Shown piece after piece: positions 16,724 to 24,798 of a stretch of DNA of 64,000 bases. The first letter of the stretch is position 1. Every line of letters begins with the position of its first letter. Where the stretch lies: positions 1 to 64,000 of the forward strand of contig CP066684.1 of the NCBI GenBank assembly GCA_016432325.1, read 5' to 3'. The notes beneath the pieces were generated by a model. The model saw nothing but the letters and a program-made list of their open reading frames with translations. It was not told where the DNA came from and searched no databases. A program made the translations under genes and the position numbers. The stretch is from Candidatus Aenigmatarchaeota archaeon (lineage in GTDB: Archaea; Aenigmatarchaeota; Aenigmatarchaeia; PWEA01; JACQIF01).

Positions 16724-17140
16724 TCACTTGACTTCCAGTTCCTCGACGTTTGAATTGCGCCTCAGAATCTCGCGTATCATCTTCACGTTCTCGCCGCCCT
16801 TGCCGATGACGCGCCCGCGGTCCTGCTGTTGAATCACGACAGTGACGCGCGTGCCGTTCGCCTCGACGCGCTCCGCCTCCGGAATCATGTTCTTGACGAA
16901 TTCGACCACGTTCGCGTTGTGCTCGAACACGCGGACGCGTTTCTTCAGGAGATTCTGCAACTTCTTTATGTTAGCGCCGCCCTTGCCGATGGCGAGACCC
17001 GCCTTGCCCTCCTCGACGACGAAGTAGACGTTCTCGTTGAGCACGCAATCCCGCGGCGAGACGTGCGTATGCTTCTCAAAAAGATTCATCGTGTTTATCG
17101 TATTAGAATCGAAGTCTCGGACAGACACATTGACACCCAA
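16724..17140 (-). CDS. nusA: Archaeal NusA (KH domains)
   Basis: GLAIGKGGANIK and GRVIGKGGENVK; in rpo operon. Confidence 0.95.
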   Translation of the reverse strand: MGVNVSVRDFDSNTINTMNLFEKHTHVSPRDCVLNENVYFVVEEGKAGLAIGKGGANIKKLQNLLKKRVRVFEHNANVVEFVKNMIPEAERVEANGTRVTVVIQQQDRGRVIGKGGENVKMIREILRRNSNVEELEVK

Positions 17141-17152
17141 CGAAATAAAAAA

Positions 17153-17425
17153 TCATTTTGCCTTGCGCTTCGGCTTGGATTCAGCTGAACCGGACAGCGC
17201 CACAACAGCTACGTTGAAGGGCTTTCCATATATAACCCCAAGTTCGCGCGAATCGCCTTCGAAGCTCTCCACGTTCGCACCGGCCTTCTGCAGTTCGGCC
17301 ACGTACGCGGCCGGACAGTTCTGCGCCGTCACGACAGTGCGTGCGCCTGCGGCGACGGCGCGCTTCGCGGCCCTGAAGCCGAGAACGACAGACCCCTTGT
17401 GAGCGACAAGCGCGGCGCGATCCAT
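17153..17425 (-). CDS. rpl30e: 50S ribosomal protein L30e
   Basis: GSVVLG, AQNCP, ELGVIYGKPF; located between rpoA'' and nusA. Confidence 0.9.
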   Translation of the reverse strand: MDRAALVAHKGSVVLGFRAAKRAVAAGARTVVTAQNCPAAYVAELQKAGANVESFEGDSRELGVIYGKPFNVAVVALSGSAESKPKRKAK

Positions 17426-18582
17426 CACTTGACACCCTTCTTCGTTTTGGTCTTCGAGAACACCAGATCGCACATTCCTGTTCCGACAGGAGCGACCTGG
17501 TTTATCATGACGTTCTCTATTATCGAGTCCAGTTCGTCAGTCTCCCCCTCGACTGCCGCGTCCATAAGCGTCGTCACTGTGGTCTCGAAGTTCGCGCGCG
17601 CCAGCACAGAGCCCTTTTCTCCGGCGACTCCGTAGCGGCCGACGGGCTTGATGCTGCCGTCGGCGCACATCACGTCGGCTACGAGCAGGAGGTGCCTTAT
17701 GTCGACGTCCAGCCCCTGTTCGCTCAGCGTCTTGTCCGCCTCGCGGATTATCGCGTTGCGCGCCGCCTCAATTCCCAGCACTTTCTCAACCTCGCGGATA
17801 TCGTTGCATACTGTCCTGTGGCGGTCGACGCCTGGCATCGCGAGAATCTTCTTGAGGTTTGAACCTATGGTGAATATGAACCAGCTTCCCTTGTCGTCCT
17901 TGCGAACGACGACCTGTCCGATGCCCTTCAGGCCGCTTATCTGCGTGTTGAGTATGCGCACCTTTCTCTTTTGCAGGTCGCGCACGCTGAGCTCTTTCTT
18001 CGGTATGAACACAAGCGTGTCGGTGTCGAACTCGACGTTGAGATCGCGCGCGTTCTTGCGCACCGACTTCACAAGGTCGTCGCCTGTAATACCGAGACGG
18101 CCGAGGTCTTCGGCCTTTACCTTGATGTTCAGGCGGGAGTTCACGAGGTCTATGCTGTCTTCGACGGCTATGTTGTGAAGAACGGACTCCTTGATGCGCG
18201 AAGCGAGATCTGTCGCGGCCTCTTTCGTGTTGTGTTCCTCGTCCATGTATATCTCCATCGTTGGAGTGGAAGGCGTTCGGCGGGCGTCCACGATTTCGAT
18301 GAGCCTCGGCAGTCCGAGAGTCACTTCACGGCCCGCGGCGCCGACGAAGTGATAAACGCGCATGGTCATCTGCGTTGCGGGTTCTGATATGGACTGCGCG
18401 GCGATGACGCCTATGGCTTCGCAAGGCTCGTACTTGGCGTCTTCGTATATCTCGACCACCTTCGCTATGACGGCCTCTGCCTTCTTGCGGTCCGGCCTGT
18501 GCTTCTCGAGGCTCTGGACGAGGCGCTCCTTGAGGCTCTCCGGCATGTCCAAATCGCGAACGATCTCTCTGTAATCAACCAT
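17425..18582 (-). CDS. rpoA2: RNA polymerase subunit A'' (Rpo1C)
   Basis: AAQSISEPATQMT, TLGLPRLIE, GIEAAR, VDIRH, GTG. Confidence 0.97.
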   Translation of the reverse strand: MVDYREIVRDLDMPESLKERLVQSLEKHRPDRKKAEAVIAKVVEIYEDAKYEPCEAIGVIAAQSISEPATQMTMRVYHFVGAAGREVTLGLPRLIEIVDARRTPSTPTMEIYMDEEHNTKEAATDLASRIKESVLHNIAVEDSIDLVNSRLNIKVKAEDLGRLGITGDDLVKSVRKNARDLNVEFDTDTLVFIPKKELSVRDLQKRKVRILNTQISGLKGIGQVVVRKDDKGSWFIFTIGSNLKKILAMPGVDRHRTVCNDIREVEKVLGIEAARNAIIREADKTLSEQGLDVDIRHLLLVADVMCADGSIKPVGRYGVAGEKGSVLARANFETTVTTLMDAAVEGETDELDSIIENVMINQVAPVGTGMCDLVFSKTKTKKGVK

Positions 18583-18585
18583 AAC

Positions 18586-21500
18586 TTACTCCTCCTTCGG
18601 GCCGCTTTCGACAACGGACTCCACGATGCCTTCGACGTCTATGGTTCCCCATTCGCTCTTCGAGGGGTCTATCGCGTCTTCGGAAGGCACGAACTGCACT
18701 ATCGCCTTGCGGTCGTCGCGTATCGTGCCGTCGTACTCTATCTTGAGGTCCTGAAGCGCGTTCACGAGGCGGCGTTCCATGTATCCCGAATTGCGCGTTC
18801 GCAACGACTTGTCCATCAAGCCTTCTCGGCCGTTCATGGCGTTGAAGAAGAACTCGAACGGGTTGAGGCCGTCCTTGAAGGAGGCGGCGATGAAGCCGTG
18901 GTCCCTGGGGCCGAGGTCGTCCTTCTGGAAGTGCGAAAGCGTGCGCCCCCTGTAGCCGCGGTGTATCCTGTCTCCTTGCAGCGTCATCTGCCCTATCAGG
19001 CCGCCGAGTTGCGTGATATTGACCATGCTGCCGCGCGCGCCTGAGAGGGCCATCGCAACGATGTCGTTCTCCGGCAGGTCCGCGGCGACCACCTTGCTCG
19101 CGTTTTCCAGAGCCTCTCCGAGAACGCGCATCACGTGCGCCTCCAGGCTTTCCTTCACGGTCAATCCCGGCACTATCTCCATCTTGCCGGCCTTGTAGTC
19201 CTTGAGCACCTTCGCGCACTCTTCGTCGGACGTGTTGACTATCGCGGTTATCTTCCTGCGGGCCGCGGGCGTTATGTCAAGGTCCGACGTGCTTGCCGTG
19301 AAGCCGCGGAAACTGAGATATTCGACGCCGAGATTCGACACGCGGTCGAGGAATGTCTTTGCGGCCTCGCTGCCGTACAGTTTGTCTATCCTGTCGAGCA
19401 ACAGCCCCTTTTCCCCGCCGACGGACTTGGCGTCGACTATGCCCTGGACGAGCGCGCCGTCCTTTATCACGACAGTGGCGTCCTCGTTCTGCGGGCTGCG
19501 CGCGTAGAGCGTGTTGTTGAAGCGCATGTTGAGGTCCTTCGGGAGCACGCGAGAGAACAGCTCCTTGCCCGTCACGTCGCGGTCCACGAACTCTTCTATT
19601 TCGAGGTTGGCGAGTATCTGGTTGGCGACCTCTCTGGGCACGACGGTTCCTTTCTTCGTGAGCACGTAGAGTCCTGACAGGTGGTCCTGTATGCATCCTA
19701 TTATCGGTCCTCCGAAGCGCGGGCTGCGGATGTGTTTCTGCACGAGCATCAGCATCTCGGCCTCTGTGCGGGCCTCCTCCGTCTGCGGTACGTGCAGGTT
19801 CATCTCGTCGCCGTCAAAGTCGGCGTTGTAAGGGGCGCAGGCGCACAGGTTGAGGCGGAAGGTGCGGCCGGGCATGATTCGCACGCGGTGGGCCATTATG
19901 GACATGCGGTGCAGGGACGGTTGGCGGTTGAACAGCACGACGTCGCCGTCCCTCAGGTGGCGCTCCACTGTGTATCCGACTTCTATCTCTTCCGTGATCT
20001 CGTCCTTGTTTTCGTTGGTGATCTTCTTCTTTCTGCCGTCGGGCCTTACTATGTAGTTCGCGCCGTCCAGTTCGTCCGGGCCGCGCTTGGCGTATGCCTT
20101 CAGCGACGCCACGTTCGATTCGTTGACCTTGACAGGGATTGTCAGTTCTTTGGCCACTTCGACAGGCACTCCGACCTGGTCTATGCTGAGCTTGGAGTCC
20201 GGAGATATGACCGTACGGGAAGAGAAGTTCACGCGCTTGCCCGTGAGATTGTTGCGGAAACGCCCTTCCTTGCCCTTAAGCCTCTGCGTTATCGTGCGCA
20301 ACGCGCGGCCGGAGCGGTGGCGCGCGGGCGGAACGCCTGACAGGTCGTTGTCGAAGTATGTCGAAACGTGGTACTGCAGGAGCTCGTGGAGGTCTTCCAC
20401 TATGAAGTCTGGCGCGCCTATGGAGATGTTGTCGCGCAGCCTCTGGTTGATGCGCACGATGTCGACGAGCTTGTGCGTCAGGTCGTCTTCGGAACGTTCT
20501 CCGGTTTCCAGGGTTATCGACGGGCGCATGGTCGTCGGCGGTATCGGCATGAGCGTTATAACCATCCATTCCGGCCTGCCCCCGCGGATGCCGAGCTTCT
20601 GCGCGTCCTCGTCCGGGATGCGTTCGAACCACTCGCGTATCTTGAGCGCGTTGAGAGGCTTGTTGTCCAGCGTGAACGTGTACGGCTTGCCGAGGCGTAT
20701 AGTTCCCTGCTTGGCGCCGCAGTGCTGGCACTTGTTTCTCTTGGACGCGACCACCTCGCCCACGGCCCCTTCGACGTCCTCGACGAAGCGCCTCGTGTCG
20801 AGGGCGCGTCCGCATACTTCGCATGTGGAACGCAGCAGTTTGTACAGCGTCTTGATGTAGCGCACGTGTATTATCGGGCGCGCGAGTTCGATGAAGCCGA
20901 AGTGCCCGAGGCACGTTCCGACGCCGCCTCCGCAGATGCGGCAACGCATGCCGGGATCTATGACGCCGAGTCTCGGGTCCATCACGCCGCCGTCTATCGG
21001 GTAGCCGTCGCGGTCGTAAAGCTCGGGCCTCGATATTTCGACGGTTCCTATCTTCCTGATGAGCGCCGACGATACGATGGAGAAGCTTATCGACTGTATC
21101 TTGTGCGGTTTCGAGGCCGTGACGTTGAGCCTTGGCAGGACCATCAGGGCCTTGAGTTCGTCGAGCATCAGCTTGAAGGCGTATGACATCTCGACGTCGG
21201 CGGTCTTGGAGGTCTTGCACTGCACGCAGTATACCTTGTTCTTGTTCCAGTCGTGTACGGCGATCAGCCCGCATTTTGTGCAGACCGGGATGGTGGCGGC
21301 GTCCGACGAGAAGCGTTCCTTGAGCAGCAACGACGCCCCGTGGGCGATGAGACAGTCCTTTTCCATTTCTCCGAAACGCAGACCGCCTTCGTTTGCGCGG
21401 CCTTCGGTCGGCTGCTTGGTCAGCAGGGCGACAGGACCGCGCGAGCGGGCGTGTATCTTGTTCGCGACCATGTGTTCGAGGCGCAAGTAGTATACGGAAC

Positions 21501-22902
21501 CGATAAATATCTCAGCTTCCATCAGCCTGCCTGTGCGGCCGTTGTACATCCTCTCCTTGCCGTCGCTCCTGAAGCCGAGCTTGCGCAGAAGAGCGCGTAT
21601 GTCATCCTCGCGTTCGCCGTTGAACATTGTGCCGTCCACGATCCTGCCGTCGAGGGCGCCTGCCTTGCCGCCTATCATCTCCAACAGCTGGCCGACCGTG
21701 AGACGCGACGGTATGGCGTGCGGGTTCATTATCACGTCAGGAGCGACCCCGTTCTCCGTGAAAGGCATGTCTTCCTCGGGTACGATGAGGCCGATGACTC
21801 CCTTTTGCCCGTGGCGCGACGCGAACTTGTCCCCTATCTCCGGTATCCTCTGTTCGCGGACCGTCAGCTTCACCATCTTGTTGCCGTCCTTGCTCTCGGT
21901 CAGGAGCACCTTGTCGACGACGCCCGTTTCCCCGTTGCGCATGGTGAGAGAGGTCTCGCGGCGGTTGTGTATGCCGGCCAGGAACTCGTCGCGGCCGAGG
22001 AAACGCAGAGGCGACGTCTTGCCGACCAGAACGTCCCCGCCAACGACGGCGCTTTCAGGCGATATGAGGCCGTCTTCCTCGAGAGGCCCGTACAATTTTT
22101 CGGACAGGTAGCCGCGCACGTCTTTCTCCGGTACTTTTATCTCATCAACCTGACCGCCGCCGTATCTCATCTCCTCCGTTTGGTATGTGCGGTAGAAGAA
22201 CGAACGGCCGAAGCCCCTTTCGACTGAGGCTTTGTTGACGATGACGGCGTCCTGCATGTTGTAGCCGTCGTATGATGCCAGAGCGATGACCACGTTCTGG
22301 CCTGCGGGGTGGCGGTCCAGCCCAAGTATGGGATACGTGGAGGTGCCGACGAGAGGGACCTGGGGATAGACGAGCGTGTTCGACTTCGTGTCGGTGCGCA
22401 TGTTGTAGTTGGACGCGTAGAGGCCCAGAGTCTGGCCTACCATCTTGGCGCCGAAGTTGACGCGGTCTCCGCGGTCATATTCTCCGTAGGGGATGACAGA
22501 CGACGAGACTCCGAGTATGACGAGCGGGTTCAGCTCGAGATGCGTGGTGCTCTTGTTGATGTCTTTCTCATAAAGCGCGACGATCGAGTTCTCCTCTTCT
22601 TCGGTGTCCAGGTACTCAATTACTCCTTCCTTGATGAGGTCGTCCCACACGGCCTTGCCTTTCTTCACGTCCTCGACGTGACTCTTGGTCAGCAGGGACT
22701 TGCCGTTCTCCACCACGACGAGAGGCCTGCGAACGCGGCCGCCGTCGGTGTTGATGCGGACTTCGTCCGAAACCTCATCGTAACCGACGTTGACGTGGTG
22801 CGTGACAGAGCCGGCGCGCCTCTTCTGCCTTATGAATCCGGCGAAGTCCAGCGGGCGCTCTGTGGTTCCTATCAGCGCGCCGTTGAGCAATATGTTGGCC
22901 AT
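18586..22902 (-). CDS. Fused RNA polymerase subunits B'-A' (Rpo2C-Rpo1N)
   Basis: aa 1 to about 595: B' (GDKFASRHGQKG, GGLRFGEME, YAFKLMLDEL); remainder: A' (GHFGFIEL, NRQPSLH, YNADFDGDEMN, GYMERRL); no stop at the junction. Confidence 0.93.
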   Translation of the reverse strand: MANILLNGALIGTTERPLDFAGFIRQKRRAGSVTHHVNVGYDEVSDEVRINTDGGRVRRPLVVVENGKSLLTKSHVEDVKKGKAVWDDLIKEGVIEYLDTEEEENSIVALYEKDINKSTTHLELNPLVILGVSSSVIPYGEYDRGDRVNFGAKMVGQTLGLYASNYNMRTDTKSNTLVYPQVPLVGTSTYPILGLDRHPAGQNVVIALASYDGYNMQDAVIVNKASVERGFGRSFFYRTYQTEEMRYGGGQVDEIKVPEKDVRGYLSEKLYGPLEEDGLISPESAVVGGDVLVGKTSPLRFLGRDEFLAGIHNRRETSLTMRNGETGVVDKVLLTESKDGNKMVKLTVREQRIPEIGDKFASRHGQKGVIGLIVPEEDMPFTENGVAPDVIMNPHAIPSRLTVGQLLEMIGGKAGALDGRIVDGTMFNGEREDDIRALLRKLGFRSDGKERMYNGRTGRLMEAEIFIGSVYYLRLEHMVANKIHARSRGPVALLTKQPTEGRANEGGLRFGEMEKDCLIAHGASLLLKERFSSDAATIPVCTKCGLIAVHDWNKNKVYCVQCKTSKTADVEMSYAFKLMLDELKALMVLPRLNVTASKPHKIQSISFSIVSSALIRKIGTVEISRPELYDRDGYPIDGGVMDPRLGVIDPGMRCRICGGGVGTCLGHFGFIELARPIIHVRYIKTLYKLLRSTCEVCGRALDTRRFVEDVEGAVGEVVASKRNKCQHCGAKQGTIRLGKPYTFTLDNKPLNALKIREWFERIPDEDAQKLGIRGGRPEWMVITLMPIPPTTMRPSITLETGERSEDDLTHKLVDIVRINQRLRDNISIGAPDFIVEDLHELLQYHVSTYFDNDLSGVPPARHRSGRALRTITQRLKGKEGRFRNNLTGKRVNFSSRTVISPDSKLSIDQVGVPVEVAKELTIPVKVNESNVASLKAYAKRGPDELDGANYIVRPDGRKKKITNENKDEITEEIEVGYTVERHLRDGDVVLFNRQPSLHRMSIMAHRVRIMPGRTFRLNLCACAPYNADFDGDEMNLHVPQTEEARTEAEMLMLVQKHIRSPRFGGPIIGCIQDHLSGLYVLTKKGTVVPREVANQILANLEIEEFVDRDVTGKELFSRVLPKDLNMRFNNTLYARSPQNEDATVVIKDGALVQGIVDAKSVGGEKGLLLDRIDKLYGSEAAKTFLDRVSNLGVEYLSFRGFTASTSDLDITPAARRKITAIVNTSDEECAKVLKDYKAGKMEIVPGLTVKESLEAHVMRVLGEALENASKVVAADLPENDIVAMALSGARGSMVNITQLGGLIGQMTLQGDRIHRGYRGRTLSHFQKDDLGPRDHGFIAASFKDGLNPFEFFFNAMNGREGLMDKSLRTRNSGYMERRLVNALQDLKIEYDGTIRDDRKAIVQFVPSEDAIDPSKSEWGTIDVEGIVESVVESGPKEE

Positions 22903-22912
22903 AGATACGCAC

Positions 22913-24391
22913 CTACTTCAGTTTGGACTGTATCGCGTCCACGAGTTTCTTGACTTCCTCATCCTTCGCGCCTGTGCTTATCTCAGCCATCAGCGAGAGG
23001 TACTTGCGCAGACCTATCGTCGGGCCTTCAGGAGTTTCCGAAGGATCGAGACGCCCCCAGTGTGTCGCGTGCAGTTCGCGCGCCGCGAAATGCTCTTGCG
23101 TCGTGGAGAGCGGGGAGATGACGTTTCTCAGGTGAGCGACGGAACGCGTGAAGTTTGCGCGTTCGAGACGCTGGGCGACTCCTGAACGGCCGCCTATCCA
23201 CACGCCCGTTGCCATGGAAGAGCGGATCTGGTTGGTCATGACAGTCGATTCGACTACGGTCGATACTGAAGGAACCTTGCCGCGCTTGGCGATTTTCTGG
23301 TAGTTGTAGTTGATGCGGGCGATGAGACCCCACTTGCCCAGCAGGATTCCACGCACGAGCATTTCGAGAAGGTCTCCGGACGTCTTGAGGCGCTTGTTTC
23401 CATAATGGTCTATGTCGTCCTCCTCTATCTCGCCCCTGGCGAGCTGCATGAGCTTGAGGGACATGCGGCCGAGGTAGAGAGCCTTCTTCTTTCTCAGGGA
23501 GCGGTCCTGCCCGATGTGCGGGAGGAGGTAGCGGTCCAGAACCTGTTCCGACTTCTCGTGCTTCTGTTCCTTCTGTGAGAGCTTCATCTTCTTGCTGATG
23601 TATTCCAGCGCGTCCTCGGACGTGGTGACGTCGGCCTCGTAGAGGTTTGAGTATATCTCTTCGATGTATTTTTCCTCGGACGTTATCGCTTCTATTATTT
23701 CCTTGTCGCTCTCAAGCCCGAGAGCGCGCATCAGAACGACTATGGGAAGGTCCTTGATGTTTGCGACGCTCGAGACTACTATCAAGCCGTCCGCCTTGCG
23801 CATGAGCATGTGCCTCTGCGCCCAGCCGCGGCTCTCGCTGTTGATGCGCATCGTCGCGACGTCCTCTTTCATTTCGAGAATCGGTTTGTTGGGCGCCACC
23901 TCTTCGATAAGGACCAGCGCCTTCTCCGTGCCGTTGACTATGAAATAGCCGCCCGGGTCGTCCGGATCCTCTCCGGCCTTCACGAGATCCTCTTCCTTCA
24001 TTCCGGCCAGAGGGCAGAGGACGCTCTTGAGCATTATTGGAATCTCTCCGATCTTGACTTCGCTCGTGGTCTGCTCGACCCCTCCTACGATGGGAGTCAT
24101 CTCGAGGAACACGGGAGCCGAGTAGGTCAGGTCGCGCAGCCTCGCTTCCATCGGCAGTATTTCGCGCATCGAACCGTCGGCCTCTTTCACCGACGGCTTG
24201 CCGAAGCGGACTTCTCCGAGCTTGACGCGGAAGTTGGCCAGCCTTTCGCTTTCCGGGGTTATCTCCCCGATTTCGTCGACGATTCTCTGGAAGCGCGATT
24301 TGACAAACACGTTGAAGCTGTCTATCTGGAACCTGACGAGCCCGCGGCTCTTCACGAACGATCCGAGCAGATGTTCAAAATCACTCGCCAT
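22913..24391 (-). CDS. rpoB2: RNA polymerase subunit B'' (Rpo2N)
   Basis: QIDSFN, EARLRDLTY, GGYFIVNG, DHYGNKR, ETPEG. Confidence 0.96.
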   Translation of the reverse strand: MASDFEHLLGSFVKSRGLVRFQIDSFNVFVKSRFQRIVDEIGEITPESERLANFRVKLGEVRFGKPSVKEADGSMREILPMEARLRDLTYSAPVFLEMTPIVGGVEQTTSEVKIGEIPIMLKSVLCPLAGMKEEDLVKAGEDPDDPGGYFIVNGTEKALVLIEEVAPNKPILEMKEDVATMRINSESRGWAQRHMLMRKADGLIVVSSVANIKDLPIVVLMRALGLESDKEIIEAITSEEKYIEEIYSNLYEADVTTSEDALEYISKKMKLSQKEQKHEKSEQVLDRYLLPHIGQDRSLRKKKALYLGRMSLKLMQLARGEIEEDDIDHYGNKRLKTSGDLLEMLVRGILLGKWGLIARINYNYQKIAKRGKVPSVSTVVESTVMTNQIRSSMATGVWIGGRSGVAQRLERANFTRSVAHLRNVISPLSTTQEHFAARELHATHWGRLDPSETPEGPTIGLRKYLSLMAEISTGAKDEEVKKLVDAIQSKLK

Positions 24392-24671
24392 GCGATACAC
24401 CCACAACGTATCTGTAGTAGACCGTCTTCCCCGCGGTCTGGCTCTTGCGCATTATCCTCACGACGTCTCCTGCCTTAGCTCCGATTTCCTTGGCCGCGGG
24501 ATCGTTTGCCGATATTTTTGGAAGCTGCTGTTCGCTGACGTTGAACTTCTTCAGCAGGTCGGCCTTTTCTTCCTTGCCCATTATCTCGTGCTTCGGCACC
24601 ATCGAGTGTTCGGAGACGCGAATCTCCTTGTCCTCGTCGGCCGTTTCCTTTACCTTGGTCTTTGCTGCCAT
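24381..24671 (-). CDS. rpoH: RNA polymerase subunit H (Rpo5)
   Basis: HSMVPKHEI, QLPKI...DP, GDVVRI.RKS.TAG...YYR. Confidence 0.97.
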   Translation of the reverse strand: MAAKTKVKETADEDKEIRVSEHSMVPKHEIMGKEEKADLLKKFNVSEQQLPKISANDPAAKEIGAKAGDVVRIMRKSQTAGKTVYYRYVVGVSHGE

Positions 24672-24713
24672 ACCGAACACCATTTCTGATACGCTCGACC
24701 GACGAACTCCAAT

Positions 24714-24798
24714 GGCGGTGCACGAGAAGCTTCGCTTCTCGGCATATGCCGAAAGCACGGCTTTCCGTGCAGCCTCTTGGAAAGACGCGCTTTCCAAA
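24714..24798. repeat. Branched palindromic element plus adjacent TTGGAAAG/CTTTCCAA hairpin
   Basis: GCACG-[CGAGAAGC/GCTTCTCG]-[GAAAGC/GCTTTC]-CGTGC; homologous to the insertion in polB. Confidence 0.75.

Follow-up and report, generated by a model that had tools for sequence, protein, structure and literature searches.

Introduction

That the two largest subunits of RNA polymerase (RNAP) can be fused is known from textbooks as an oddity of Helicobacter and Wolbachia. Here we analyze an archaeal gene in which B' (Rpo2C) and A' (Rpo1N), pieces of the second-largest and the largest subunit, are read in a single frame. The gene lies in the first 64,000 nucleotides (nt) of contig CP066684.1 (assembly GCA_016432325.1), from a tiny groundwater archaeon of the Aenigmatarchaeota; this whole stretch is called the window throughout. 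The fusion had been proposed in an earlier note made from the letters alone (the sequence-only reading), which likened it to the bacterial beta-beta' fusions and knew of no such architecture described in archaea.

Natural beta-beta' (rpoB-rpoC) fusions are recorded for the Helicobacteraceae, Wolinella, and Wolbachia (Zakharova et al. 1998, 1999, as cited in PMC7483510 and PMC9696931), and Candidatus Adlerbacteria carries one as well (PMC11515920). The comparison with these systems holds for the window gene: the C terminus of the second-largest subunit is joined to the N terminus of the largest, so that adjacent operon genes become one frame that places both double-psi barrels in a single chain. 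However, the window gene fuses pieces of archaeal subunits that were already split, and the archaeal trait toggles repeatedly within one class. The window protein also scored far under the models built for the bacterial fusions (379.3 versus 5372 bits for NF007172 [PRK09603]; 350.8 versus 4632 bits for NF011417 [PRK14844]). It is an analogue of the bacterial fusions, not a member of their family.

Among archaea, RNAP fusions and splits have been treated as rare genomic changes, with an unsplit A subunit in Thaumarchaeota, Bathyarchaeota, and Korarchaeum and a secondary A'-A'' fusion in Pacearchaeota; changes of this sort are described as apparently infrequent, and the cases discussed are of the A'-A'' kind only (Da Cunha et al. 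2017, PMC5484517). There, as here, the core is re-cut into polypeptides with its domain content unchanged, but those rare events join pieces of one subunit, whereas the present ones join two different subunits and are frequent. The canonical split Rpo2C and Rpo1N of methanogens and halophiles, and the solved RNAPs 8CRO, 4QIW, and 2WAQ (with Rpo1N and an unsplit Rpo2), have the same domains, motifs, and operon order as the window gene, which differs in lacking a stop codon, a start codon, or a ribosome-binding site between B' and A'. The searchable full-text literature yielded no paper on an archaeal B-A' fusion, in agreement with the sequence-only reading, and NCBIfam holds models for the bacterial beta-beta' fusions and none for an archaeal one. 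A recurrent archaeal fusion between pieces of split subunits is common in public data and apparently undescribed.

Results

B' and A' in one open reading frame

On the minus strand, window positions 18586 to 22902 form one open frame of 1,438 codons with a terminal stop only, predicted to encode a B'-A' product of 1,438 residues and 159.7 kDa. The parts of the gene, with the evidence for each, are as follows.

18586..22902, minus strand: fused rpoB'-rpoA' gene (translation, Pfam, NCBIfam, motif positions, genome search for Rpb2_6)
21115..22902, minus strand: B' (Rpo2C) part, amino acids (aa) 1-596, Rpb2 domains 4-7 (Pfam, NCBIfam, motifs)
21109..21114, minus strand: former stop and start codons, now TCG (Ser597, 21112-21114) and AAA (Lys598, 21109-21111) (sister-clade comparison)
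18586..21111, minus strand: A' (Rpo1N) part, aa 598-1438 plus stop codon, Rpb1 domains 1-5N (Pfam, NCBIfam, motifs)

The frame is complete, with the domains and motifs of both halves in place. Pfam matched aa 4-593 with PF04566, PF04567, PF00562, and PF04560 (Rpb2 domains 4, 5, 6, and 7) and aa 600-1410 with Rpb1 domains 1 to 5, domain 5 by its N part. Among NCBIfam models, the archaeal rpoB model TIGR03670 (rpoB_arch) scored above its cutoff over aa 4-595 (880.7 versus 811 bits), as did the A' equivalog NF006336 over aa 597-1432 (1164 versus 819 bits) and the A' model TIGR02390 (1136.5 versus 1042.55 bits). In the B' part, the GDKFASRHGQKG motif (aa 357-368) and the C-terminal zinc ribbon (CTKCG at 541-545, CVQCK at 559-563) were intact; in the A' part, so were the catalytic NADFDGD loop (aa 1026-1032) and the clamp zinc sites (CRICGG at 654-659, CLGHFG at 664-669). 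The two double-psi barrels thus sit on one predicted chain, as the earlier note had held, and B'' and A'' are separate open reading frames (ORFs), so that the B''/B' and A'/A'' splits it described are indeed kept.

The junction reads LPRLNV-TASKPHK-IQSISF over aa 590-607 (in longer form, DELKALMVLPRLNV-TASKPHK-IQSISF). The Rpb2_7 match ends at aa 593 and the Rpb1_1 match begins at aa 600 in the same frame; B' has no stop codon of its own, and A' has neither a start codon nor a ribosome-binding site of its own. The codon of T595 occupies nt 21120-21118, matching the junction that had been placed at about 21100-21120, near aa 595, and B' runs into A' without a stop as claimed. The same note described a compact linker without an internal methionine: the linker is compact, at about seven residues, but a methionine, M587, lies eight residues upstream of it. 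Since the whole 874,869-bp genome contains a single Rpb2_6 locus, the fused gene is the cell's sole source of B' and A'.

Substitutions at the former stop and start codons

The fusion was common to four independent assemblies of a genus-level clade, all with a linker of identical length. Besides the window, these were "Ca. Aenigmatarchaeota NC_groundwater_1118" (G001; JACQIF010000069; protein MBI4017820.1, P0005) and two Logan-assembly proteins (P0004 and P0006); all three proteins were 84 to 87% identical to the window protein (84% for G001). Linker residues and codons differed within the clade (LNVTASKPHK, LNLTKTKPYK, LNVVATKPAK, and LNVTSIKPAK), with S, T, T, or I at the old stop position and K at the old start position. 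In the sister clade (loci L003 to L007), B' ends in TAA or TAG, followed directly and in the same frame by the A' start (LN[IL]GE-TAA-ATG-IEKIKS), and this junction aligned without gaps to that of the window (LNI-GE*MIEKIKS in L003 to L005 versus LNV-TASKPHKIQS). The window TCG (Ser597) is in register with the sister TAA and the AAA (Lys598) with the sister ATG, with no indel.

The Shine-Dalgarno (SD) signal for A' had also been lost. When any run of 5 nt or more matching AGGAGGTGATC within the junction was counted as an SD, one was present at 24 of 32 loci with an in-frame stop, 21 of 25 with the two genes in other frames, and 1 of 32 fused loci. In the split relatives overall (45 of 57 with a junction SD), the final codons of B' contain it (as GGTGA or AGGAG). 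No SD-like match of even 4 nt was found in the 33-nt stretch scanned at the window junction, which starts downstream of the M587 ATG. The two junctions of the same operon that are still split keep theirs: ahead of the fused gene (TAGGTG...ATG), an AGGTG site placed 6 nt upstream of the ATG shares bases with the rpoB'' TAG stop, and ahead of A'', AGGAGG lies in the final codons of the fused gene and is followed by TAA-GTT-ATG (region AGGAGGAGTAAGTTATG). Some other fused lineages retain the old methionine (for example, GEEMRVKRIEF in fused L099 versus EEV*MKVDRIEF in split L131), which gives the direction of change as split to fused.

Taking these comparisons together, the observation of a B'-A' fusion is confirmed, and the junction sequences indicate an evolved fusion, not an assembly error. 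They also show the route, namely, a stop-to-sense substitution in a gene pair abutting in frame, after which start codon and SD decayed. We consider it very probable that the window carries a heritable B'-A' gene fusion made by point substitutions.

Structural compatibility of the link

The junction region aligned to the C-terminal ∼100 residues of archaeal Rpo2 structures, ending three residues short of the chain end, and the A' part aligned to solved Rpo1N chains from residue 5 to 7 onward. The natural linker is therefore no longer than the combined length of both free tails. In the PDB, the top match was 3QQC chain A (E = 5e-58), whose alignment runs colinearly over the window junction with a gap of one residue. 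This structure is the engineered Pyrococcus furiosus "rClamp," in which B residues 1053-1115 are joined to A' residues 3-318 by a short Gly/Ala/Ser linker; the construct was soluble, bound Spt4/5 stoichiometrically, and crystallized (Martinez-Rucobo et al. 2011, PMC3094117). Like the window protein, rClamp links the B C terminus to the A' N terminus through a few residues; in contrast to it, rClamp was made artificially as a domain construct of 436 residues, into which an A'' segment is joined as well, and is neither a full catalytic subunit nor a natural gene. The rClamp construct thus proves by experiment that the native clamp fold tolerates a covalent connection of a few residues at exactly this point.

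Recurrence of the fusion within the class

When the junction region was used to search the species-representative genomes of the class (371 in all), 345 gave a match. In 63 of these, the junction was in one frame without a stop, as B'A' or as whole B joined to A'; in 45 it was in one frame with one to three stops; and in the remainder the genes were in other frames or unlinked. The fused genomes fell in 10 of ∼40 families: f29 (17/19), f28 (16/65), f19 (11/20), f14 (10/22), f7 (3/36), f1 (2/2), and one genome each in f15, f25, f26, and f40. Fused and split states occurred together in families f7, f14, f19, f26, f28, and f40 and even within genera g74 and g82. Outside the class, ∼40 loci, taken without a systematic survey of other phyla (Thermofilaceae, Methanobacterium, Woesearchaeota, Iainarchaeum, and Nanoarchaeia), all had stops or different frames at the junction.

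Among the database matches listed, >100 proteins were fused, with Rpb2_6/7 and Rpb1_1-5 in one ORF. Their lengths were 1,420 to 1,460 aa for B'A' and 1,910 to 1,932 aa for whole B plus A', with junctions of 5 to 10 residues, and those bearing names were mostly from Aenigm(at)archaeota metagenome-assembled genomes (MAGs) and called "subunit A'" or "subunit B." A survey of DPANN genomes for ORFs carrying domains of both subunits had been suggested in the sequence-only reading; the architecture proved anything but rare in public databases.

For phylogenetic analysis, 80 junction regions, 12 loci (the window and 11 relatives), and outgroups were combined into 98 taxa (463 aa of B and 501 aa of A'; IQ-TREE quick search, LG+G4; branches with a Shimodaira-Hasegawa-like approximate likelihood ratio test [SH-aLRT] value of ≥95 starred). 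The window protein grouped with Aenigmatarchaeota B(')-A' fusion proteins that are uncurated in public databases. The fused/split label required 17 changes on the tree, or 13 when starred branches only were counted, compared to a mean of 27.8 for shuffled labels. The window and G001 formed a starred pair with support of 100 inside a likewise starred, order-level clade with support of 100, whose 15 other members were all split. Given this nesting among split taxa, the fusion of this genus is an independent, derived event. Because 63 fused genomes are scattered over 10 families and the tree requires at least 13 to 17 changes, the fusion is a recurrent and easily gained trait that serves as a marker at the genus level only.

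The possibility that abutment in frame is itself selected was considered and dropped: 45 of 282 unfused genomes had the two genes in frame at close range, not above the one-third expected by chance. Within the window's own order, this close in-frame arrangement was seen in 10 of 20 genomes.

Discussion

Alternative explanations for the fused frame

The many relatives that stand one in-frame stop away from a fusion make it natural to ask whether a real stop was misread during sequencing or assembly, B' and A' in fact being separate. With such an error, ATG and SD should both have survived. At the window junction, stop, start, and SD have all been replaced, and a misread stop would not account for the loss of the other two; moreover, the independent assemblies of the clade are likewise fused with different codons, and 61 further species genomes are fused. 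We regard this explanation as extremely improbable. A frame that is truly fused could still yield free A', by internal initiation (for example, at M587) or by proteolytic cleavage of the linker, and the public annotation lends this idea some color. The NCBI record of this genome contains only an 852-aa A' (P0021) that starts at M587 (window 18586-21144, minus strand), and a weak AAGG, starting 9 nt upstream of the M587 ATG, lies within AAGGCCCTGATG. However, M587 belongs to a conserved C-terminal stretch of B', DELK[AS][LM][ML] (consensus DELKSML; DELKALM in the window), which fused and split relatives have in common. It is therefore not a vestigial start codon, and as a candidate start, vestigial or active, it was rejected. 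The 33 nt downstream of the M587 ATG lack even a 4-nt SD match, each B' chain must carry A' since B' has no stop, and the simplest account of the 852-aa call is a start chosen by homology. Initiation at M587 is unlikely as a source of free A', and we would give the production of free A' by any of these routes little credence overall. The deposited 852-aa protein is instead an actual annotation error to which the fusion gave rise; the full 1,438-aa product is absent from the public protein collection for this genome.

The sequence-only reading had also suggested that the fusion could be a clade marker, which in its strongest form would be one ancient event inherited vertically in a DPANN lineage. 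Some lineages do look fixed: both members of g1, 17 of 19 genomes of f29, and all matched members of g17, g29, g32, g54, g81, g88, and g90 are fused. Against a single origin stand the six families and two genera that hold both states, the minimum of 13 changes even on branches with SH-aLRT of ≥95 only, the position of the window clade among split taxa, and the linkers of the different fused clades, which are unlike in both length and sequence. A single origin is very improbable on this evidence, and the marker idea stands for the genus and fails above it. With that exception, the interpretation offered in the earlier note was right, including its remark that the fusion could be a source of misannotation: NCBI names fused homologues "subunit A'," and the protein of this very genome is truncated.

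Preferring a heritable fusion made by point substitutions, we note four considerations that weigh against it or limit its reach. The single-polypeptide product is deduced from DNA only. An AlphaFold2 model of aa 440-800, built from a 31-row alignment, was poor (mean predicted local distance difference test score [pLDDT], 54; predicted template modeling score, 0.44) and adds little; its residues near the junction (model residues 151-170; pLDDT, 76 to 81) form a strand-turn-strand, which we do not use as evidence. The taxa for the tree were chosen for approximately equal representation of three states and searched quickly under LG+G4, which makes the change count a lower bound for the sample, not a rate. 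Finally, the frequency of reversals argues that any functional benefit of the tether is small.

Origin and proposed effect

In the ancestor of the genus, B' and A' abutted in frame (GE-TAA-ATG-IEK), an arrangement that the sister clade has kept. Substitution of the stop codon by a sense codon (now Ser597) joined them, and the start codon (now Lys598), having become useless, and the SD in the last B' codons then decayed. Translation from the B' start should produce one chain of 159.7 kDa, in which ∼7 residues tether the B' C-terminal zinc ribbon to the A' N-terminal clamp core, at precisely the point in the clamp where both chain ends already come together. The enzyme would be built of B'', B'A', A'', and the small subunits. 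Such a tether would fix a 1:1 stoichiometry and may aid clamp assembly. Its effect is probably near neutral, because at least 13 gains or losses have occurred in the class and both states are found within genera.

A more speculative view is that the in-frame TAA-ATG junction is an evolutionary switch under selection, possibly a read-through switch, with the tether advantageous for clamp assembly or stoichiometry in very small, low-expression cells and with many nominally split relatives also making some fused chain by read-through. We hold this to be unlikely; if true, cellular RNAP core architecture would be tuned over short evolutionary time rather than frozen.

Implications

The archaeal counterpart of the bacterial fusions is found in about one-fifth of the species of one class, where it has been gained or lost at least 12 times. 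The way in which the universally conserved RNAP core is cut into chains is thus far more plastic than assumed, and RNAP split and fusion states are unfit for use as rare genomic changes in DPANN archaea. The genes rpoA and rpoB are standard phylogenomic markers. Annotation pipelines misname fused proteins (as "subunit A'") or truncate them, as in this genome, and this misannotation also touches marker gene extraction for phylogenomics. Natural linkers of this kind are ready designs for single-chain clamp or core constructs in structural work on archaeal and eukaryotic-type polymerases.

Operon context and related architectures

The operon order, rpoH-B''-B'A'-A''-L30e-nusA, is canonical. The genes flanking the fusion are as follows.

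24381..24797, minus strand: rpoH (Rpb5 C-terminal domain), first operon gene (ORF as listed, probably with an internal true start)
22913..24406, minus strand: rpoB'' (Rpo2N), Rpb2 domains 1-3, separate gene (ORF, Pfam)
17425..18582, minus strand: rpoA'' (Rpo1C), Rpb1 domain 5, separate gene, 385 aa (ORF, Pfam)
17153-17473 (within 16724..17473), minus strand: weak L30e/L7Ae-family match (E = 7e-4; 19.7 bits, under the Pfam cutoff of 22.1)
16724-17140, minus strand: NusA-like KH protein, downstream operon gene

The region at 17153-17473 may tentatively be read as L30e, chiefly from its position in the operon. Many A'' homologues of 830 to 900 aa (P0124 to P0138 and others) carried intein and LAGLIDADG domains (PF14528, PF14890). 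A few of these were named and came from Aenigmatarchaeota MAGs, most were unnamed, and others were from MSBL1 and Methanocaldococcus. The window A'' (17425-18582) contained no intein or LAGLIDADG domain.

Further variation in the cutting of the core was seen across the class. B was unsplit in some families (frames of ∼1,090 to 1,150 aa; G006 of the window's order and families f7, f35, and f36) and divided into B'' and B' in others (f4, f5, f14, f28, and f29), and fused forms occurred on both versions (B'A' of ∼1,430 aa and BA' of ∼1,910 to 1,940 aa). The B split is thus also variable within the class. In related MAGs labeled Nanohalarchaeota, two proteins of 1,206 to 1,208 aa (P0139 and P0140) were A'-A'' fusions. 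No B-A'-A'' triple fusion was present among the best 120 matches of a search for longer A''-containing proteins that covered lengths up to 2,000 residues, which is not evidence of absence. One genome (G259:C18:7969-8637) contained a 2,291-aa read-through frame with a single TAG that looks like B followed by A' continuous with A''; a three-part single chain would need the loss of that one stop codon.

The rpoB-rpoA' operon was broken in some Aenigmatarchaeota (G027, G034, and G040, family f12; loci L078 to L089), with the B C terminus and the A' N terminus on different contigs or ∼27 kb apart, or with no A' within 3 kb downstream of B. In the methanogen MAG Candidatus Methanoflexus mossambicus (L091), rpoB and rpoA' were separated by a 345-nt, extremely AT-rich, repeat-like spacer (FYNFYNFYNF... 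in translation).

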